Origin: an uncultured Desulfobacteraceae bacterium
Lineage (GTDB): Bacteria > Desulfobacterota > Desulfobacteria > Desulfobacterales > SKZT01
NCBI GenBank assembly: GCA_964478625.1
Contig: CAYZJH010000006.1
Location: forward strand, 12,543 to 76,542
DNA: 64,000 nucleotides
Reading direction: 5' to 3'
In this document: positions 559 to 58,250 of the stretch, piece by piece
How positions within the stretch are numbered: the first letter of the stretch is position 1
Layout: every line of letters starts with the position of its first letter
Position numbers and translations under genes: made by a program
Notes under the pieces: model-generated
What the model was told of the DNA's origin: nothing
The model's input: the letters and a program-made list of their open reading frames with translations, nothing else
Database searches by the model: none

Positions 559-708
559 CACAAGAAACATGGTTCCGTCACTCCGGCGCAAGCCTGAGTC
601 CAGAATCATTATCCATAGATTCCGGCTTTTGCCGGAATGACGAAAGACAGGAACCACATGAAACCTGTTACTTGTCGGCTGGGGCTCAGCATGCTGAGTG
701 AAACGCTT
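559..708 (+). repeat. modular intergenic repeat (MITE-family fragment); inverted copy of 21771..21942
   Basis: acaagaaacatggttccgtcactccggcg...ccggaatgacgaaagacaggaaccacatgaaacctgttacttgtcggctggggctcagcatgctgagtgaaacgct aligns with the reverse complement of 21771..21942 apart from one inserted module. It ends 1 nt before the rluD stop codon. Confidence 0.85.
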
Positions 709-7703: not shown

Positions 7704-7883
7704 CTTGACAGTACAAAGTTCTCCGTGATGCCGGACTTGATCCGGCATCCAGAAAAACCAGCGTCCTTAATCCAACTGGACAGCGCTGCGCTTCACTTTG
7801 TGCCCGGCCTTCGCCAGAATGACGAACTATTAAAATCGATAAAAATTAATTCCAAGTATTTATGAGAACTTAGTACTGTCAAG
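7704..7883 (+). mobile_element. 180-bp MITE-like element, reference copy of the family
   Basis: Terminal inverted repeats CTTGACAGTACAAAGTTCTC (7704-) and GAGAACTTAGTACTGTCAAG (-7883). Internal hairpin ATGCCGGACTTGATCCGGCAT (7728-7748) and module agcgctgcgcttcactttgtgcccggccttcgcc. Near-twin of 54511..54690. No TSD visible at this copy. Confidence 0.85.
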
Positions 7884-11852: not shown

Positions 11853-12056
11853 TTGACAATGACACTTTTTTAATTGGTGACCGGCAGCCTTAACCTGACC
11901 CCGATGGGCAAAGCCTGTCCCGGGCATGAACCGGTAGAGCCGGGCACGAAGTGAAGCCTTCAGGAACTATCCATAAGCTGAAACCATCCGGCTGGATGCC
12001 GGCTCCCGGTTTATGCCCGGGACAAGCTTCGCCGGTATGATGTTAAGAACTTTCTC
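11853..12056. repeat. MITE-family composite repeat
   Basis: Contains family modules cctgtcccgggcatgaaccggtagagccgggcacgaagtgaagcc and, inverted, ggctcccggtttatgcccgggacaagcttcgccgg. Boundaries approximate. Confidence 0.7.
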
Positions 12057-17433: not shown

Positions 17434-17605
17434 TTTGAATTGTCCAATCTCGACTGTGTCATGTATAGGCCATTGCCTCTGTGACTTCCCTAATAATTCG
17501 CTAAATCGTGGCTGAATGAAAACTTTCTGGTATGATTATCCTTTTTCCTGTTTTTCCCCCTTCAGGTAGTGGAAATAAAAGGCTTTTCAATACGGCACTG
17601 ATAAA

Positions 17606-17824
17606 CTTGACAGTCTTAAGTTCCCATAACTCCTTGAAATGAATTATTGCCGATTTTATTGTTTCGTCATTCCGGCGGAAGCCGGTATCCAGTCTCCATC
17701 ATTTCGGCGGAACTTGTCCCGTACTTGAACCGGGAGCCGGTATCCACCCCACGTGAATTCAGGAACTCGGTTTTCCTGGATGCCTGATCAAGTCCGGCAT
17801 GACGGAGAACTTTGTAGTGTCAAG
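17606..17824 (-). mobile_element. 219-bp MITE-family element with a 7-bp target-site duplication
   Basis: TIRs CTTGACAGTCTTAAGTTCCC (left) and GGAGAACTTTGTAGTGTCAAG (right). Hairpin module at 17780-17800. Flanked by identical TGATAAA at 17599-17605 and 17825-17831. Confidence 0.9.
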
Positions 17825-18123
17825 TGATAAACTGTCCGCATTCATATCATGTTCAGAAACCATAATGTTTCCGTTAACCATCTTCCGATCCTGAATCCAA
17901 TACCGATCATTCATCTTTTGACCGGTGTTCATTTTCTTAATCATCCTATGACAAAATCGATAGTACCTGTCAATTATTTGTTTTCATTAATCAATCACCG
18001 AATCATCCGGTACAATTCCCGGCCCTATGGCTACCACAGGATATTGATGTAGCCTCCGGGGATGGGGGGATATATATTGTGGTTGACCCTCGGACAAACT
18101 TTTTTTCCCCATAAAATTTTTCT

Positions 18124-20342: not shown

Positions 20343-20945
20343 TGTGACAGAACAAAGTTCTGAGTCATACCGGGCTTGATCCCTGGGTGAACCTTTTAGG
20401 TAGACAATATCTTTCCAGCTGTCCGAAGTTCACCGTCATGCCGGACTTGATCCGGCATCGGGGAAAAACAGGTACCAGAATTCACCACGATAGCGCTGCG
20501 CTTCTTTTCGTGCCCGGCCTTCGCCCATTGGTAATCAAGTTAAAGTCCTGCCTGATCCCAGCATCAGAGGCCGAAAACGGTTTCCTGCATGTCATTCTAA
20601 GGAAGCGACTCACAACAGCTTGGTTCTTGAAATAAATATTTCCCATTCAGATGGATTGAAACCACGGCGACCGACGAATCTCTATTTGCGAGCCCGCACG
20701 GATCATCGAATCTGACTCAAAGTTTAAACACAAGAAGCCGGGCCGGCATGAAAGATATGTTTTTTGCCGGCCGTTGAGCACTCGCCATCTACCCTTTTAC
20801 GATATCGGCCTCGCCAGAACCACATCCTTTTAATATATGGCCGGAAACCCTGACTTGGCACCAATGTTGCCCTCGCCGGAAAGGCGTTACAATAAAATCG
20901 ATATCGATTAATTCCAAACACTTATGATACCTTATGACTGTCAAG
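20343..20945. mobile_element. ~600-bp compound MITE-family element
   Basis: Left end gtgacagaacaaagttctgag; right end cttatgactgtcaagg. Contains the hairpin module (20438-20458), the agcgctgcgcttc...gtgcccggccttcgcc module, and a ~150-bp module shared (inverted) with 28440..28540 and 57990..58150. The small ORFs inside are repeat-derived. Confidence 0.75.
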
Positions 20946-21349: not shown

Positions 21350-21950
21350 GGATAGTATCAGTCATTTCGGTGAAGCCTTTCCCAAGCACAAAACGTGAGC
21401 CGGTACCCACGTCAATTCAGGAACCTGTTTTTCCCGGATGCCGGATCAAGTCCGGCATGACGGAGAACACCGGGCTGTCAGGTAAATTTATCCGATACGA
21501 AATTTAAACAATAATGATCCATGGTGGGATTGTCAAAGCAGCTTTCAGATTCCGGTGAAATTCAAAATATGAACCTACCGCAAGACCTAATATCACGTTC
21601 AATCACGGCCGGTTCCTGCCGGAATCACCAGAGGAATTGAGTTTGAACTGCTCCCCCCCTTTTAATGAAAAAGGGGGGCGGGGGGACTTAACGTGAACCG
21701 ATACCGTTTTTAAAATCCCCCTGAATCCCCTTTTTTCATTAAAAGGGGGACTTGCGGTGAGTTACTTAGGAGCGTTTCACTCAGCATGCTGAGCCTTAGC
21801 CGACAAGTAATAGGTTTCATGTGGTTCCTGTTCTTTCGTCATTCCGGCGAAGCCTGTCCCGGGCTTGAACCGGGAGCCGGAATCCAGGGATAGTGGTTCT
21901 AAGCCTCGGCCTTCGCCGGAGTGACGGAACCATGTTACTTGTAAAATCAC
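21350..21950. repeat. compound repeat region (MITE modules plus C/G-tract hairpins)
   Basis: Hairpin module at 21438-21458 with a TIR-like ggagaacaccgggctgtcagg. Two oppositely oriented hairpins ccccccttttaatgaaaaagggggg (21653-21678) and ccccttttttcattaaaaggggg (21727-21749). 21771..21942 is the inverted copy of 559..708. Confidence 0.75.
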
Positions 21951-23508: not shown

Positions 23509-23996
23509 GACCGTGCTCCATTTTCTTCAGTAAAAAGTTTCATATTTCACCCCGATTTGAAATCCATCGGCCGGATGCGGGACCATTGAACCAGTTTACC
23601 CAAACCGGTGGAGATGAACCCTTTTATGGCCGGAACGGCATGCTCCGGCTCTCTTTTCAGAATATCACGATGGGAATTATGCCGACAAGGCTGCCGCTGT
23701 TTTTTTCTCAACACCGAACCGGTCATGGAGAATCTTTCCGACGGAGTATATCAACGATCCCATGGATACGTGTAACAACTCACTTACGGAGGTATGCATT
23801 GCTTATAGTCAAAAAGCCTGACAGTCTTTTTGAAAAGATTTAATTTTTAAAACAGACACGATTGGGATAATCTTATCCATCTTGTTTTGATCTGGAAGAA
23901 GCGGTCACTTACCAGGTAACTATGCCAAGTAGTGATGAGCGGCAAAAGCATCGCTTTTGCCCTCTTGTCGAAAAAATTCCCCTGGACCCTTCCGGC

Positions 23997-24130
23997 TAAT
24001 ACCTAATACCTTATACCTTATTCCTTATACCTTATACCTTATACCTTTTCTTCCTGAACACTGAACACTGGAACCCAACTTCCGCCGGGATGTCGGTTTA
24101 AGATCGTGCCCGGATGACAATAAAATGCGC
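23997..24130 (+). repeat. heptamer array (TTATACC-type x7) followed by MITE-family modules
   Basis: taatacc taatacc ttatacc ttattcc ttatacc ttatacc ttatacc (23997-24045), then ttcttcctgaacactgaacactgg...ccgccgggatg...atcgtgcccggatgac. The same arrangement recurs at 28662..28800. Confidence 0.85.
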
Positions 24131-27164: not shown

Positions 27165-28070
27165 TTAAAAAGGAACAAAAAATGGATAATTTTTTGTAAA
27201 TTGCAGAAAAGCCCGGGCTGCCGCTGTAATGGGTACTTTTTCCAGTCTGATCATTTTGAATGTTCTTGACCGGGTCATTTTCGGCACACTCAAAATGATG
27301 ACCGATCCTTCCCGAACCTCTTTGAATACGGACCATTTGGAAACCACCGACAGACCAATGCCGTATTTGACCATTTCGATAGCCAGATTCTGACTTTCGG
27401 TGGTCATGACGATAGTGAGTGATCCGGGATCAACGGCCATATTCTGAAAAAAAGTGTCGCCAACCCCCGGCATATCCTTTCCTGAGGAAACAAGCACCAC
27501 AGGGTGTTTGTACAAGTCTTTGGGTAAAATCGGATTTTTTTCGGCCAAAGGATGATTTTCCGGACCGATCAGGACCACCTCGTCTTCGACAAGTTCTTCT
27601 TCAAACCCAAAATTTCCGGGCATCGGCTCCGGTGTTACGGCAAAATCGATACGGGCATTATTCAGGTCCCGAATCATTTTCTCTGGATCCTGAACCAAAA
27701 CATGGAGAACCACATCGGTATAGTTAAGGTTGAATTGATAAAGGAGTTGGGGCAGAAGATCATGCGCAGCCGTGGCATCGGCCCCGATATGCAAAGCCCC
27801 TTTCACCTGATGCAGCAATTCAAGAATGTCTTCGGTTAATTGTGTATATCCGGAAAGAATCCTTTTGGCATGGTGATAGAAAATGGCTCCTGCCGGAGTT
27901 GGTCTGACTGCACGGGTATGCCGGTACACCAGGGGAGTTCCCAAATCCTTTTCAAGACCTTTAATCAGATGACTGATGGCCGACTGGGTCAGGCATTTGG
28001 ATTCAGCAGCCCTGGAAAAACTTTCATGTTCGATGACAGCGCAAAAGACCTGTAATTTGTGATCTTCCAT
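27165..28070 (-). CDS. LysR-family transcriptional regulator
   Basis: 301 aa; N-terminal HTH FSRAAESKCLTQSAISHLIKGLEKDLG; LysR substrate-binding-type C-terminus. Confidence 0.9.
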   Translation of the reverse strand: MEDHKLQVFCAVIEHESFSRAAESKCLTQSAISHLIKGLEKDLGTPLVYRHTRAVRPTPAGAIFYHHAKRILSGYTQLTEDILELLHQVKGALHIGADATAAHDLLPQLLYQFNLNYTDVVLHVLVQDPEKMIRDLNNARIDFAVTPEPMPGNFGFEEELVEDEVVLIGPENHPLAEKNPILPKDLYKHPVVLVSSGKDMPGVGDTFFQNMAVDPGSLTIVMTTESQNLAIEMVKYGIGLSVVSKWSVFKEVREGSVIILSVPKMTRSRTFKMIRLEKVPITAAARAFLQFTKNYPFFVPF

Positions 28071-28119
28071 AAGCCTCTATTCAGTTTTTTTTTAAATTCC
28101 AAAGTAAGCGGCTTTGAAA

Positions 28120-28890
28120 CATAAAAGCTTCCGACGTCTTTCCAGCGGAACCGGTCCCGGGCATGAACCGGGAGCAGGAATCCATTTTTGCAGCTGCACT
28201 CCATGGATAGCGCCTGAAGGCTTCACTTCGTGCCCGGTGTTCTTCGTTATGCCGGACTTGATCCGGCATCCACGAAAAACAGGTGCCTCAATCCGCATGG
28301 ATTCCGGTTTCAACCCATTGGCGCCGGGTTAAGGAATGAAAAAGCTATTTTAATTGTCATTCTGAGGAGGCCAACATGGTACGCGGTTATATGGCACACG
28401 ATCAGTGGCCGACGAAGAATCTATCCTCCATGCCGGCACGGTCTCTTGTGTTTAAACTCCAAGTCAGTACCGATGATCCTTCCGGGCTCGGGCAGATAGA
28501 TTCTTCGGTCGCTAACGCTCCCTCAGAATGACAAGTTCCAGGCAAGCTTCCTGAACCCTGAACACCTAATACCTAAAACCCGATCTTTCATGTTTCCGGT
28601 TCCCGGTTCAGGCCCGGGACAGGCCCCGCCGGAAAGACAGTACACTATCTCCTAAACACGTGAATACCTAAAACCTTAAACCTAATACCTTATACCTTAT
28701 ACCTCACACCTGAAACCTTTCCTTCCTGAACACTGGATCCCGACTCCCGGTTCAGGCCCGGGACAGGCCCCGCCGGGATGACGGCATAAAATCGTGCCGG
28801 GATAGCCATACGATCAGCCGCAATAACGTCAAAATAAACCGAGAGCACCTGATACCAGGCACTTATGAGATTTTTGGACAATCAAGAAAC
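28120..28890. mobile_element. ~770-bp compound of MITE-family modules and heptamer arrays
   Basis: Contains ggtcccgggcatgaaccgggagc, the hairpin module (28249-28269), the gttatatggcac...cttgtgtttaaactccaagtcag module shared with 57945..58030, NNNNACC heptamer runs (about 28555-28580 and 28662-28717), and two ccggttcaggcccgggacaggccccgccgg copies. The right end cacttatgagatttttggacaatc is a degenerate TIR. Confidence 0.75.
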
Positions 28891-28999
28891 AATATACCAT
28901 GAAAATATTTCATGCGAAATAGTAAAAAAATGAATTTGATTTCATAGAGGATGGGATGATAGAAATTTGACCTTGAAAACAAAGAAGGAGACCCGTCTG

Positions 29000-37843: not shown

Positions 37844-37904
37844 CATTTCAAACATACCGGCCTTCACCGGTATGACGACAATAGATTCTCCCAAATAAAA
37901 TCAC

Positions 37905-53898: not shown

Positions 53899-54453
53899 AT
53901 GGAAACTGATATTTATGGGACCCCAAAAGGGAAATCGTGTCTGATGCAGATAATTAAATTAAGTCATGAGTTAAAAAATACCAAGGGCACATATATTATC
54001 TTTACTTGCCTGAAAACTGAAAAATATATCCGGATTGGAAAACTTGGGACTTTTTGCTTTTATCCGGGGTATTATGGTTACGTGGGAAGCGCATTCGGTC
54101 CGGGAGGGATTTCATCCCGTGTCGGACACCATCTTCATACAGCATCCGAGCCTCACTGGCATATGGACTATTTTCGCAAAGAAATCTTGATCGAGGAGAT
54201 ATGGATCTGCAACGATGAAAAGCCCCTTGAGCATGTTTTTGCAGATCTTTTTCTCCGGATGGTTGGTACATCCATACCGGTCAAGGGATTCGGGAGTTCC
54301 GATTGCCGATGTGTTTCCCATCTTTTTTATTTTCAGAGGGTTCCGGATGCAATTGAGTTTGAAAAGAAACTTGGCCAAGAAGGTATCATGTGTCGGGTGT
54401 CGGTTTTAAGTTTGTGGAATGAAAGCACAGAGGTTTTTCAGGATTCCGGCTGA
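53899..54453 (+). CDS. DUF123 / GIY-YIG-superfamily (Uri-like) protein
   Basis: 184 aa; GTYIIF...IRIGKLGTFCFYPGYYGYVGSAFGPGGISSRVGHHL...PHWHMDYF matches the DUF123 pattern as I recall it. Confidence 0.7.
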   Translation: METDIYGTPKGKSCLMQIIKLSHELKNTKGTYIIFTCLKTEKYIRIGKLGTFCFYPGYYGYVGSAFGPGGISSRVGHHLHTASEPHWHMDYFRKEILIEEIWICNDEKPLEHVFADLFLRMVGTSIPVKGFGSSDCRCVSHLFYFQRVPDAIEFEKKLGQEGIMCRVSVLSLWNESTEVFQDSG

Positions 54454-54510
54454 AAGCAAAACACATGAACAATGGAACCCAATACATGTTAATATCGGTT
54501 TTCCTGGAAT

Positions 54511-54690
54511 CTTAACAGTACAAAGTTCTCCGTCATGCCGGACTTGATCCGACATCCAGAAAAACCAGCTTCCTTAATTCACCTGGATAGCGCTGCGCTT
54601 CACTTTGTGCCCGGCCTTCGCCGGAATGACGATACAATAAATTTGATATTATTGAATTCCAGGTACTTATAAAAACTTAAGACTGTCAAG
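54511..54690 (+). mobile_element. 180-bp MITE, near-twin of 7704..7883, with a 7-bp target-site duplication
   Basis: TIRs CTTAACAGTACAAAGTTCTC and AAAAACTTAAGACTGTCAAG. Hairpin module at 54535-54555. Flanked by CTGGAAT at 54504-54510 and 54691-54697. Lies 40 bp upstream of the tryptophanase-family gene. Confidence 0.9.
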
Positions 54691-54729
54691 CTGGAATAAT
54701 GGTTTATACATATACAAGCAGGAGTTGAA

Positions 54730-57807: not shown

Positions 57808-58250
57808 AGAATTCTCATAAGTACCTGGAATCAATGATTATCGATTTTTTTTTGCATCGTCATTCCGGCGAAAGCCCATTGCCGTCGAGTTCAGGAACTG
57901 ATAGGGAATTCAAGGTTGTCATCCTGAGGGGACCAACCTGGTAGACGGTTATATGGCACGCGTTCAAGGGCAGCCGAAGAATCTTTCCTTCACACCGCCA
58001 CAATTTCTTGTGTTTAAACTCCAAGTCAGATTCGATGATCGGTCAGGGCTGGGGAATAGAGATTCTTCGGTTGCCGTGGTTTCAATCCACTTCATGGGAA
58101 ATATTTTTTCAAGTATTAAGACGTTGCGAGTCGCTCCCTCAGAATGCCATGCAAGAAACCGTTTTCGGCCCCTGATGCCGGTATCAAGATAGGACCTTAA
58201 CTTGACGCCAGTGACAATGACCCCTGGCCGGAACAACAGGTTTGTCAATT
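57808..58250. mobile_element. ~440-bp compound MITE-family element
   Basis: Left end agaattctcataagtacctggaat is the inverted version of the 7850-7875 and 54655-54680 sub-terminal sequence. Contains gtcattccggcgaaagcc, the gttatatggcacgcg...cttgtgtttaaactccaagtcag module, and the module shared with 20590-20730. Ends about 9 bp from the etfA stop. Confidence 0.7.

Follow-up and report, generated by a model that had tools for sequence, protein, structure and literature searches.

Probable chimeric MITEs joining insertion-sequence-type ends to Ssn-type hairpin pairs in a Desulfobacterales-like genome

Element copies and their insertion sites

The window, the 64,000-nucleotide stretch of DNA analyzed here, consists of long open reading frames (ORFs) over ~84% of its length, and all copies of the repeats described below are intergenic. 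Only four sites in the window are bounded by inverted repeats (7704-7883, 17606-17824, 20343-20945, and 54511-54690). These elements, their parts, and two decayed relatives are as follows.

7704-7883 (+): MITE copy of 180 bp, inverted repeats of 20 bp, target-site duplication absent
17599-17605: left 7-bp target-site duplication TGATAAA, the same as at 17825-17831
17606-17824 (-): MITE copy of 219 bp, with end B at 17606-17623 and end A at 17807-17824
17665-17692 (+): apparently Ssn-related (NTS-like) hairpin unit, CGTCATTCCGGCGGAAGCCGGTATCCAG
17697-17746 (+): extra degenerate unit whose loop contains a nested hairpin (TCCCG...CCGGGA)
17775-17803 (-): hairpin-1 unit, CGTCATGCCGGACTTGATCAGGCATCCAG
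17825-17831: right 7-bp target-site duplication TGATAAA
20343-20945 (+): decayed composite MITE of 603 bp, left end degraded (TGTGACAG...), right end intact
21352-21483 (-): shortened MITE remnant, homologous to the end-A half of 17606-17824
54504-54510 and 54691-54697: CTGGAAT duplications of the MITE at 54511-54690
54511-54690 (+): MITE copy of 180 bp
54531-54559: hairpin-1 unit inside the MITE at 54511-54690
57812-58205: decayed composite remnant with end-B-proximal sequence and a CGTCATTCCGGCGAAAGCC half-unit

The transposon ends are the outer ~19 to 22 bp of the elements, CTTGA(C/G)AGT..AAGTTCT; the inverted repeats of 17606-17824 and 54511-54690 measure ~18 bp (CTTGACAGT..AAGTTC). A live partner insertion sequence would be expected to have the ends CTTGACAGTACAAAGTTCTCC. 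At 17606-17824, one end reads CTTGACAGTCTTAAGTTC and the other, when reverse-complemented, reads CTTGACACTACAAAGTTC. The end consensus CTTGACAGTACAAAGTTC, searched with up to three mismatches, gave 6 matches in the window versus 0.03 expected. An exact 7-bp duplication flanks two of the three intact copies, and by our own calculation the chance of a perfect 7-bp flank match is ~6e-5 per element. These two copies, 17606-17824 and 54511-54690, had been proposed as elements in a sequence-only reading of this DNA, and their coordinates, sequences, terminal inverted repeats (TIRs), and TGATAAA and CTGGAAT duplications were all confirmed. The flanks of 7704-7883 differ (TCATTAA versus ATCACCA) and the composite at 20343-20945 is also without a target-site duplication, leaving two of the four bounded elements without one.

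The interior of 17606-17824 is made up of an AT-rich arm and three hairpin units, and this copy measures 219 bp instead of 180 bp because of the inserted degenerate unit at 17697-17746. In the MITE, an AT-rich arm of ~45 nt separates the hairpin pair from end B; in 54511-54690, the partial inverted unit ends at 54631. The two 180-bp copies (7704-7883 and 54511-54690) are only 87% identical and therefore are not recent. The MITEs of the window, 180 to 219 bp in length, carry no transposase gene. The composite at 20343-20945 contains a second, internal end-A/hairpin-1 segment. An unrelated repeat is nested in it as well (~20560-20860), and the remnant at 57812-58205 has another nested copy of that repeat. 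In the remnant at 21352-21483, end A has decayed to CTGTCAGG.

Insertion at two of these sites is suggested by relatives of the host, in which gene order is kept and the inserts are absent (62 to 76% protein identity). The DUF1844-ispE spacer, which holds MITE 7704-7883 with the terminator hairpin of DUF1844 on one side and the start codon of ispE on the other, is 39 to 95 bp long in relatives versus 266 bp in the window, and the DUF123-lyase spacer, which holds MITE 54511-54690, is 118 bp long in relatives versus 276 bp in the window. The sequence-only reading had suggested comparing strains for empty sites; relatives lack the inserts at two sites, and the same-strain assemblies fetched showed no presence/absence polymorphism, the MITE being at the identical place or the assembly breaking inside it.

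Hairpin units with and without transposon ends

The core of the MITE is an inverted pair of ~28-nt units, arranged as CGTCAT-palindrome-ATCCAG, a spacer of 23 to 26 nt, and CTGGAT-palindrome-ATGACG. Sequences of the hairpin units include CGTCATTCCGGCGAAGGCCGGAATCCAG and CGTCATTCCGGCG.... The sequence-only reading had listed six occurrences of the ATGCCGGACTTGATCCGGCAT hairpin, and we found it at exactly those six positions (four exact and two with one mismatch; 0 expected).

Chenal et al. (2025) reported that the Ssn/NTS hairpin class is widespread, drew no link to transposons, and posed as a question how the hairpins multiply (PMC11893778). Both an SRM search pattern, HGTCWYN(0-2)YYVSBRHN(0-5)WNVSBRGN(0-2)RNCYNB, and an NTS consensus have been published, and an SRM is defined by oriented flanks, the palindrome being preceded by CGTCAT and followed immediately by C (PMC11893778). 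The units in the window have these oriented flanks, since they start with CGTCAT or a one-base variant and most finish with ATCCAG. Unit 2 of related MITE cores fits the SRM pattern, as do units from IMG/VR viral contigs, and differs from the NTS consensus in one compensatory stem pair (C:G to G:C). The unit at 17665-17692 has four mismatches to the NTS consensus, two of which make up a compensatory stem pair. Neither this unit nor the hairpin-1 unit fits the strict SRM pattern, which is matched in the window only at 615-642(-) (1 match versus 0.18 in shuffles). When a Desulfobia MITE was used as the blastn query, it matched a Neisseria gonorrhoeae NTS-spacer-NTS unit and also a Rhizobium inverted pair. 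By these likenesses, the puzzling "modules" of the sequence-only reading are re-identified as apparent members of the recently characterized Ssn/NTS class, that is, as Ssn-related (NTS/dRS3-like) motifs.

In single-stranded form, the canonical 80-nt pair of related genomes adopts a perfect four-way junction; the window copies fold less cleanly. Fold z-scores were about -5.5 to -6 for the related-genome cores and -2.5 and -1.5 for the MITE cores of the window; because palindromes fold equally on both strands, these scores are uninformative on RNA function.

Hairpin modules were also found at five window sites without inverted-repeat ends (560-713, 11907-12050, 21765-21942, 28135-28793, and 37858-37884), where they take the form of single or paired units, nested hairpins, and arrays. 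Their main features are listed here.

575-643 (+): solo inverted pair of apparent Ssn-type hairpin units, without transposon ends
11898-12052: palindromic pair of a nested-hairpin module (…GCCTGTCCCGGGCATGAACCGG…), without transposon ends
21829-21927 (+): solo inverted pair, left unit with a nested hairpin, without transposon ends
28135-28793: hairpin modules arrayed in a divergent spacer and interleaved with other repeats
28135-28184: unit with a nested hairpin in the 28135-28793 array
28249-28269: hairpin-1 in the same array
28596-28649 and 28740-28793: reverse units in the same array

The pair at 21829-21927 belongs to the repeat 21765-21942, whose reverse complement lies at 560-713; the stretch 21835-21887 shares 98% identity with a Desulfonatronovibrio MAG. 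Outside the window, hairpin pairs without transposon ends are present in one further locus (L128) and in IMG/VR contigs.

The sequence-only reading had assigned at least ten sites to one family of MITEs built from shuffled modules. The four TIR-bounded elements and the remnants at 21352-21483 and 57812-58205 are MITE copies or their decayed forms; the other sites hold hairpins without ends, and the hairpins account for most of the ten. The idea of one family of shuffled modules does not hold, since the modules appear to be Ssn-related/NTS-like hairpins that exist alone in bacteria and in viral contigs. The modules are not transposon-derived. Because hairpins also occur without transposon ends, the repeats fall into two layers, the chimeric MITE and the independently spread hairpins, and the end-less hairpins are spread by something other than the DDE_5 transposase described below.

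We searched for enzymes that might act on the hairpins; ssn genes (cd10448 GIY-YIG) often have the motif beside them. No Ssn-type gene was found in the window by motif regex and tblastn (with an E. coli YhbQ query), and ~15 kb of extra flanks contained no GIY-YIG gene besides a DUF123 gene that lies inside the window. This gene (COG1833, GIY-YIG-like; 53899-54453) is 58 bp upstream of the MITE at 54511 and was considered and rejected as the cognate nuclease. DUF123 belongs to a GIY-YIG family other than Ssn (cd10448), and its adjacency to the MITE is best read as coincidence, because DUF123 homologues in four loci (L300 to L303) have no Ssn-type hairpins nearby. A small GIY-YIG gene at another locus (L127), the sole one in the fetched loci, was likewise rejected, having no hairpins around it. 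No RAYT gene was found among ~20 window proteins scanned against Pfam, and the hairpin units open with CGTCAT, not with a GTAG-type REP motif.

A cognate insertion sequence in other genomes

The sequence-only reading had claimed that the window holds no cognate transposase. This was confirmed by tblastn over the 64 kb, and none was present in ~15 kb of additional flank; nor did this flank, ~7 kb on the left side of the window (L304) and ~8 kb on the right (L307), contain further MITE copies. The insertion sequence with the MITE TIR and 7-bp duplications for which that reading had proposed a search was found in other genomes (L010, L162, and L170). This autonomous partner is 1.6 to 2.1 kb long, has the identical end type, makes 7-bp duplications, and encodes a DDE_5 (IS701-like) transposase. 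A Paenibacillus copy (L010:3606-5227) spans 1622 bp, with MITE-type ends, the duplication TTATAAG, and a 491-amino-acid DDE_5 protein. MITE-type ends also bound ~30 elements of 1.94 to 2.09 kb in metagenome contigs, and exact duplications flank the long elements at L162 and L170. A transposase gene adjoins a MITE-type end in eight loci. Of the Desulfobacterota copies examined, those at L060, L163, and L200 have genes for a small HARE-HTH protein and a DDE_5 transposase, and the one at L008 is incomplete. Most of the full-length insertion sequences on short metagenome contigs have nonidentical flanks, which may reflect chimeric assembly across a repeat.

The transposases passed the Pfam DDE_5 cutoff of 27 bits with scores of 28 to 41 bits; NCBIfam IS701_3 was their best match, yet its scores of 118 to 161 bits lie below the cutoff of 170. 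IS701 proper makes 4-bp duplications. The size of the insertion sequence (1.6 to 1.9 kb) and its 6- to 7-bp duplications presumably fit the ISDol1 group of ISNCY (ISfinder). We did not adopt the name ISDol1, for which the searchable literature offers name mentions only, and a plasmid database labels relatives of the insertion sequence merely "transposase." The missing partner of the MITE family is named here as an IS701-like element that makes 7-bp duplications.

Small elements with the same ends are also found in other genomes. A scan of the genome collection for the ends was expected to give several hundred chance matches, so isolated single matches in unrelated phyla were disregarded, and a match was kept only if its similarity extended further, if it had a duplication, or if a transposase adjoined it. 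Among the matches listed, elements of 130 to 160 bp with MITE ends occur in Desulfobia, Desulfonatronovibrio, and other Desulfobacterota MAGs, and 7 of 13 distinct small elements have an exact 7-bp duplication (TTCTAAT, ATATAAA, CTGTGCA, TTATTAA, TTATTAG, CTAGAAA, and TTAACAA). The hairpin core is present in only a subset of the small elements; MITEs with MITE-type ends yet no hairpins lie at L026, L029, L084, L020, and L087. The architecture of the MITE is conserved between genera, and the element is common to Desulfobia, Desulfonatronovibrio, Desulfonatronospira, and the Desulfobacterales-like source genome. The MITEs of Candidatus Thiomargarita nelsonii were considered as kin and set aside; from their description they look unrelated, with 10-bp direct repeats at the hupL MITE and TATAG termini in the dsrA-intron MITE (PMC4853749).

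These data bear on two other accounts of the elements. MITEs classically originate by internal deletion of an insertion sequence. If the MITE were such a simple deletion derivative of a full-length copy in this genome, its ends should match those of full-length insertion sequences, and they do so at 95 to 100% over ~20 bp. The similarity is confined to the terminal 19 to 25 bp in the full-length copies examined, however, and beyond this the MITE interior is unlike any of them; moreover, the interior hairpin pair exists independently elsewhere, and ~79 kb of this genome contains no full-length copy. We consider this origin quite improbable. According to the second account, all of the repeats form one REP/BIME- or NIME-like hairpin system, spread by an Ssn-type GIY-YIG nuclease, a RAYT-type Y1 transposase, a site-specific recombinase, or recombination, and the TIR ends and 7-bp duplications are incidental. 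End-less units or pairs in the window (575-643, 21829-21927, and 28135-28793) and in IMG/VR contigs, Neisseria, and Rhizobium agree with such a system, as do the nested hairpins that occupy the loops of other hairpins, and for the modules without transposon ends it is the correct reading. For the bounded elements it is highly improbable, given the exact 7-bp duplications in two window copies and at least seven elsewhere, ends that match those of a transposase-encoding insertion sequence (19 to 20 bp at 95 to 100%), the existence of hairpin-less MITEs with the identical end type, and the lack of a RAYT or Ssn gene in the window.

The TIR-bounded elements are thus very probably chimeric MITEs, in which insertion-sequence-type ends enclose an inverted pair of Ssn-type hairpins as cargo. 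A transposase produced at another place, whether in the present genome or in an earlier one, would bind the ends and insert the element at AT-rich sites by a 7-bp staggered cut, the repair of which would yield the 7-bp duplications. The sequence-only reading had called the elements nonautonomous and mobilized in trans. The MITE type and 7-bp duplications uphold the first part; with no transposase in the window or its flank, present mobilization in trans in this genome is a matter of inference.

Genomic placement and comparison with known repeats

It had also been suggested that the elements act at 3' ends in termination or mRNA stabilization, and that their TIRs carry TTGACA hexamers. Maintenance of the elements as RNA or regulatory modules (terminators, stabilizing hairpins at mRNA ends, or TTGACA promoters) would accord with the intergenic position of every copy in an ORF-rich window, with the strong folding of the related-genome cores, and with viral contigs in which many single units, judged by eye, adjoin a ribosome-binding site and start codon. 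Several copies do lie 0 to 25 bp from a stop codon, as claimed, and one MITE terminates 13 bp ahead of the ispE start codon. A 3'-end bias is nevertheless not evident: repeats occur in both orientations and in spacers that are tandem (7704, 17606, 20343, 54511, 21352-21942, and 11907), convergent (560, 37858, and 57812), or divergent (23996 and 28135). Terminator and promoter scans covering two MITE regions found no intrinsic-terminator-like site inside the MITEs, whose hairpins are without a T-run. The TTGACA hexamer is present in each TIR, but it points inward at both ends and has no -10 partner in the scan, which argues against a promoter role. At gathering thresholds, Rfam reported tRNA-Gln alone for the whole window, and a permissive scan of 28050-28920 (E up to 1) gave only a chance miRNA match; neither supports the repeats as RNA elements. 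The fold z-scores say nothing on RNA function, and the Neisseria SsnA protein, a small GIY-YIG nuclease, binds and cuts such hairpins as single-stranded DNA, not RNA (PMC11893778). A regulatory role is therefore unlikely to account for the elements. The hairpins may interact with an Ssn nuclease here.

As a MITE, the chimeric element is ordinary. Like MITEs derived from insertion sequences, it is short, noncoding, multicopy, and intergenic, with matching TIRs of ~20 bp and an equal 7-bp duplication; unlike them, it has an interior that consists of an apparent Ssn-type hairpin pair and an AT-rich arm and does not come from the insertion sequence. No earlier description was found of its combination with Ssn-type hairpins.

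The hairpins resemble NTS/SRM repeats in their 28-nt unit, CGTCAT and ATCCAG flanks, 6-bp arms, and 8-nt center, and, like NTS/SRM and NIME repeats, they are intergenic and able to form arrays. They differ in that no ssn gene was seen (window and ~15 kb of flank) and in that the host is Desulfobacterales-like, not a symbiont or pathogen as for NTS/SRM. NIMEs, which belong to the same class as NTS/SRM, were described as arrays in Neisseria only (Bentley et al., 2007; PMC1797815). Like the NIME (dRS3-RS-dRS3), the pair is inverted around a short AT-rich spacer, with the architecture of the N. gonorrhoeae unit; unlike it, the pair here has ATTCCG-N8-CGGAAT in place of ATTCCC-N8-GGGAAT and a spacer of 23 to 26 nt in place of a 50- to 150-bp RS element. 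Packaging between transposon ends is described in neither PMC11893778 nor PMC1797815.

REPINs also consist of two inverted imperfect palindromes with a short spacer, which form a long hairpin or cruciform, and are multicopy and intergenic, with both singles and pairs. In contrast to REPIN/RAYT systems, we found no RAYT gene and no GTAG-type 5' motif, and the window copies bear DDE-type TIR ends and 7-bp duplications, which are absent from REPINs. Correia elements (CREE) offer a parallel in being MITE-like and in coexisting with dRS3/NTS repeats in the intergenic regions of Neisseria. They duplicate TA and are not known to have a transposase. They show no sequence similarity to the window elements. 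Their inverted repeats span 51 bp, and the elements are 156 bp long, or 51 bp after internal deletion (PMC1797815).

A transposon-borne inverted pair offers a concrete and testable route by which such hairpins could disperse. A wider reading, possible but doubtful, is that the element is a vehicle for Ssn-type hairpins that hitchhike on a DDE transposon: the inverted pairs would form a mobile or recombinogenic unit in their own right, spread across bacteria, and their capture between insertion-sequence ends would give them a second route to multiply and to cross Desulfobacterota orders. If this is true, and if an Ssn nuclease is encoded by the host or its neighbors, every insertion would create a further cut site in incoming or replicating single-stranded DNA, and spread of the MITE would reshape which loci exchange by transformation or conjugation.

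The repeats also affect assembly and annotation. Spurious ORFs arise in the repeat regions; peptide strings from them (WIPAFAGMT-like) returned no papers in a literature search. In one locus (L001), two short gene calls lie within or beside a MITE. The repeats also break short-read assemblies, in which contigs stop inside them.

MITE copies in the window

Self-comparison of the window revealed repeats in 13 or 14 intergenic places. The sequence-only reading had described a modular MITE family at ten or more sites; repeats do occupy that many, but only four are bounded by inverted repeats. Beyond these and two truncated or decayed copies, also from self-comparison, the repeat sites are hairpin modules without transposon ends.

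MITE copies in the window
17606-17824: 219 bp; start CTTGACAGTCTTAAGTTC, end the reverse complement of CTTGACACTACAAAGTTC; duplication TGATAAA at 17599-17605 and 17825-17831
54511-54690: 180 bp; ends as in 17606-17824, opposite orientation; duplication CTGGAAT at 54504-54510 and 54691-54697
7704-7883: 180 bp; 20-bp inverted repeats, 87% identity to 54511-54690; no duplication
20343-20945: decayed composite, 603 bp, inverted-repeat-bounded; no duplication
21352-21483 and 57812-58205: truncated or decayed copies

Coordinates and occurrence counts confirmed both duplicated elements, their ends and the six hairpin sites of the sequence-only reading. The MITE end consensus occurred six times in the window (0.03 expected), and the 21-nt hairpin was found at 7728, 17780, 20438, 21438, 28249 and 54535 (0 expected). 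What chiefly sets the 219-bp copy apart from the 180-bp copies is an extra hairpin unit with a nested hairpin.

The genes around the MITEs are ordinary housekeeping genes. About 84% of the window lies under long ORFs; those overlapping repeats by more than a few bases are almost entirely confined to repeat regions and look spurious. Tandem, convergent and divergent spacers are all occupied, with no evidence of the proposed 3'-end bias, and consensus scans supported neither a terminator role nor a promoter role.

At the insertion site of MITE 7704-7883, relatives with 72-75% ispE identity that retain the order serA-DUF1844-ispE-prs have a spacer of 39-95 bp, versus 266 bp in the window. At that of MITE 54511-54690, relatives with 62% identity that retain the DUF123-lyase pair have 118 bp, versus 276 bp. 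MITE 7704-7883 has a conserved terminator-like hairpin on one side and the start codon of ispE on the other. Most similar to the window ispE are genes from Desulfobacterales MAGs (67%) and from Desulfonema magnum (57%). The window is metagenomic, and proteins identical to its own are encoded on contigs from ENA, Logan and NCBI. The strain comparison proposed in the sequence-only reading yielded no empty MITE site among same-strain assemblies and thus no evidence of current activity.

Insertion sequences with the same ends

As had been stated, the window contains no relative of the cognate transposase; about 15 kb of additional flank lists none either, and no further MITE copies were found there. 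The view of the element as a non-autonomous MITE mobilised in trans was supported by insertion sequences elsewhere that encode DDE_5 and share its ends and 7-bp duplications. In Paenibacillus medicaginis, a 1,622-bp element (L010:3606-5227) has the MITE ends and the duplication TTATAAG. Its 491-aa product matches Pfam DDE_5, and its top NCBIfam match, IS701_3, scored 161 bits, below its cut-off of 170. This transposase family adjoins a MITE-type end in eight loci.

A metagenome scan with an alignment of the N-terminal domain of the L010 protein returned 80 loci. In about 30 of them the element is complete (1.94-2.09 kb), with ends CTTGA(G/C)AGTC.AAAGTTCT. The copies read encode both a HARE-HTH protein (~102 aa) and a DDE_5 transposase (~478 aa). 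Of these copies, L200 is intact and L008 truncated, and in L060 and L163 the transposase is broken into two ORFs. In these Desulfobacterota versions the accessory gene lies upstream of the transposase (L200:773-1168; L163:468-776; L060:554-862; L008:4846-5166), and its product matched Pfam HARE-HTH in L200 and in L163, the copies that were scanned. The 1.6-kb Paenibacillus insertion sequence has no such gene. The full-length insertion sequences L162 and L170 carry exact 7-bp duplications. Most others, on short contigs, have non-identical flanks that both resemble WTAnTAA by eye, from which we infer an AT-rich target preference and chimeric assembly across the repeat. Element size and the 6-7-bp duplication presumably agree with the ISDol1 group (ISNCY, ISfinder).

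Small elements were sought with CTTGACAGTNNWAAGTTC in one genome per species, giving at least 116 loci; because we estimate several hundred chance matches to this pattern, only matches with extra evidence were used. Among the matches listed, sorting by the following sequence revealed a strong excess of CTTGACAGTCAAAAGTTCT, and many lay at the end of a contig or on several contigs of the same MAG. Also among these were 130-160 bp elements with MITE ends and exact 7-bp duplications (TTCTAAT, ATATAAA, CTGTGCA, TTATTAA, TTATTAG, CTAGAAA, TTAACAA) in Desulfobia, Desulfonatronovibrio and other Desulfobacterota MAGs. A DDE_5 transposase acting in trans, which would have moved the bounded copies, is the mechanism with the best support.

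Hairpin modules and the build of the MITE

Copies from the window and other genera were aligned by eye. The common plan is end A; CGTCAT-GCCGGACTTGATCCGGC-ATCCAG; an AT-rich spacer of 23-26 nt; CTGGAT-TCCGGCTTTCGCCGGA-ATGACG; an AT-rich arm of ~45 nt; and end B. The canonical 80-nt core of related genomes folds into a perfect four-way junction (z = -6), and the window cores fold more weakly (z = -2.5 and -1.5). In one Desulfobia copy, ATCCGG...CCGGAT replaces ATCCAG...CTGGAT, a compensatory change. The match to full-length insertion sequences is confined to the terminal 19-25 bp, which argues against a simple deletion derivative.

The hairpins resemble a known repeat. The 28-nt Neisseria Transformation Sequence (NTS), CGTCATTCCCGCGMAVGCGGGAATCYRG, includes dRS3 and is bound and cut, as single-stranded DNA only, by the small GIY-YIG nuclease SsnA; Ssn-related motifs (SRMs) occur widely and show an association with ssn genes (Chenal et al. 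2025, PMC11893778). That paper mentions neither MITEs nor Desulfobacterota. Unit 2 of the MITE core in related genomes, CGTCATTCCGGCGAAAGCCGGAATCCAG, fits the published SRM search pattern, and its two differences from the NTS consensus form a compensatory stem pair. In the window, the strict pattern matched only at 615-642 (reverse strand; one match versus 0.18 in shuffles); the other units have diverged from it or are lengthened by a nested hairpin. The build of the MITE's hairpin pair resembles that of a Neisseria intergenic mosaic element unit (dRS3-RS-dRS3; PMC1797815).

Such hairpins also occur without transposon ends. An IMG/VR scan with GTCATTCCGGC-N4-GCCGGAATCCAG found 97 copies in 85 stretches, mostly single units on unrelated contigs, and the hairpin-1 unit forms inverted pairs without transposon ends there. 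L128 has a solo pair next to an insertion sequence. With the Desulfobia MITE as query, blastn matched N. gonorrhoeae at an NTS-spacer-NTS unit and a Rhizobium plasmid at an intergenic inverted pair. Judged by sequence, the modules form an independent hairpin-repeat class and are not, as had been proposed, shuffled parts of one MITE family. Because hairpins occur without the ends, and MITEs with the same ends occur without hairpins, we read the window MITE as a chimera in which insertion-sequence ends enclose an Ssn-type hairpin pair. The earlier interpretation was partly right and partly wrong. The element is ordinary as a MITE; what is new is that it is combined with Ssn-type hairpins and shared between orders of Desulfobacterota.

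The MITE hairpins are candidate Ssn targets in the window's organism; no ssn-like gene was found within the window. The DUF123 gene beside a MITE (COG1833, GIY-YIG-like; 53899-54453) was rejected as an Ssn-type nuclease: it belongs to a different GIY-YIG family, and its homologues lack such hairpins nearby. Its start is probably Met16 (53944), the database representative has 169 aa, and in relatives too the gene is paired with that of a beta-eliminating lyase.

By eye, many single 27-nt Ssn-type units on unrelated viral contigs (IMG/VR loci L207-L291, e.g. L209, L230, L276, L287) lie, in one orientation or the other, immediately next to a ribosome-binding site and start codon, which suggests precise insertions of single units into 5' leaders. 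A smaller hairpin, TCCCGG-loop-CCGGGACAAGC, is set exactly in the loops of both Ssn-type hairpin kinds, giving a hairpin within a hairpin (L006 7772-7899, reverse strand; window 21837-21887, 17697-17746 and 28135-28184). Window 21835-21887 has 98% identity to a Desulfonatronovibrio MAG. An N. gonorrhoeae replicon (L310, NZ_CP119140.1) is filed among plasmids as 'plasmid p2022NG-0076_1'; its size of 2.17 Mb suggests the chromosome.

Other repeats in the window

28354-28535, 57916-58150 and, inverted, within 20560-20860: third, unrelated repeat family, ~180-240 bp
23996-24063 and 28654-28735: two runs of 7-bp tandem repeats (CCTTATA / CCTAATA)
560-713 and 21765-21942: ~150-180 bp repeat, mutual reverse complements

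The third family is bounded by TGTCATTCTGAGG...CCTCAGAATGACA, and its core, TTCTTGTGTTTAAACTCCAAGTCAG..CGATGATC, is highly conserved. Both strands of the repeat fold strongly (z about -5), and two of its three copies are nested in decayed MITEs. A permissive scan of the 28050-28920 copy returned no Rfam family, and the core had no exact match in IMG/VR. The tandem-repeat runs share a 68-nt stretch (85% identity) ending CTTCCTGAACACTG, and both lie in divergent spacers beside hairpin modules. The ~150-180 bp repeat consists of a solo Ssn-type hairpin pair and a segment with the palindrome GCTCAGCATGCTGAGC; one copy (560-713) reaches the rluD stop codon (709), and 24 bp separate the end of the other from the stop codon of the photolyase-related gene. 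A hairpin of C- and G-runs occurs twice at 21640-21760, as CCCCCCCTTTTAATGAAAAAGGGGGG and CCCCTTTTTTCATTAAAAGGGGG, in the spacer that separates this gene from the cupin gene; the two copies lie ~60 bp apart.
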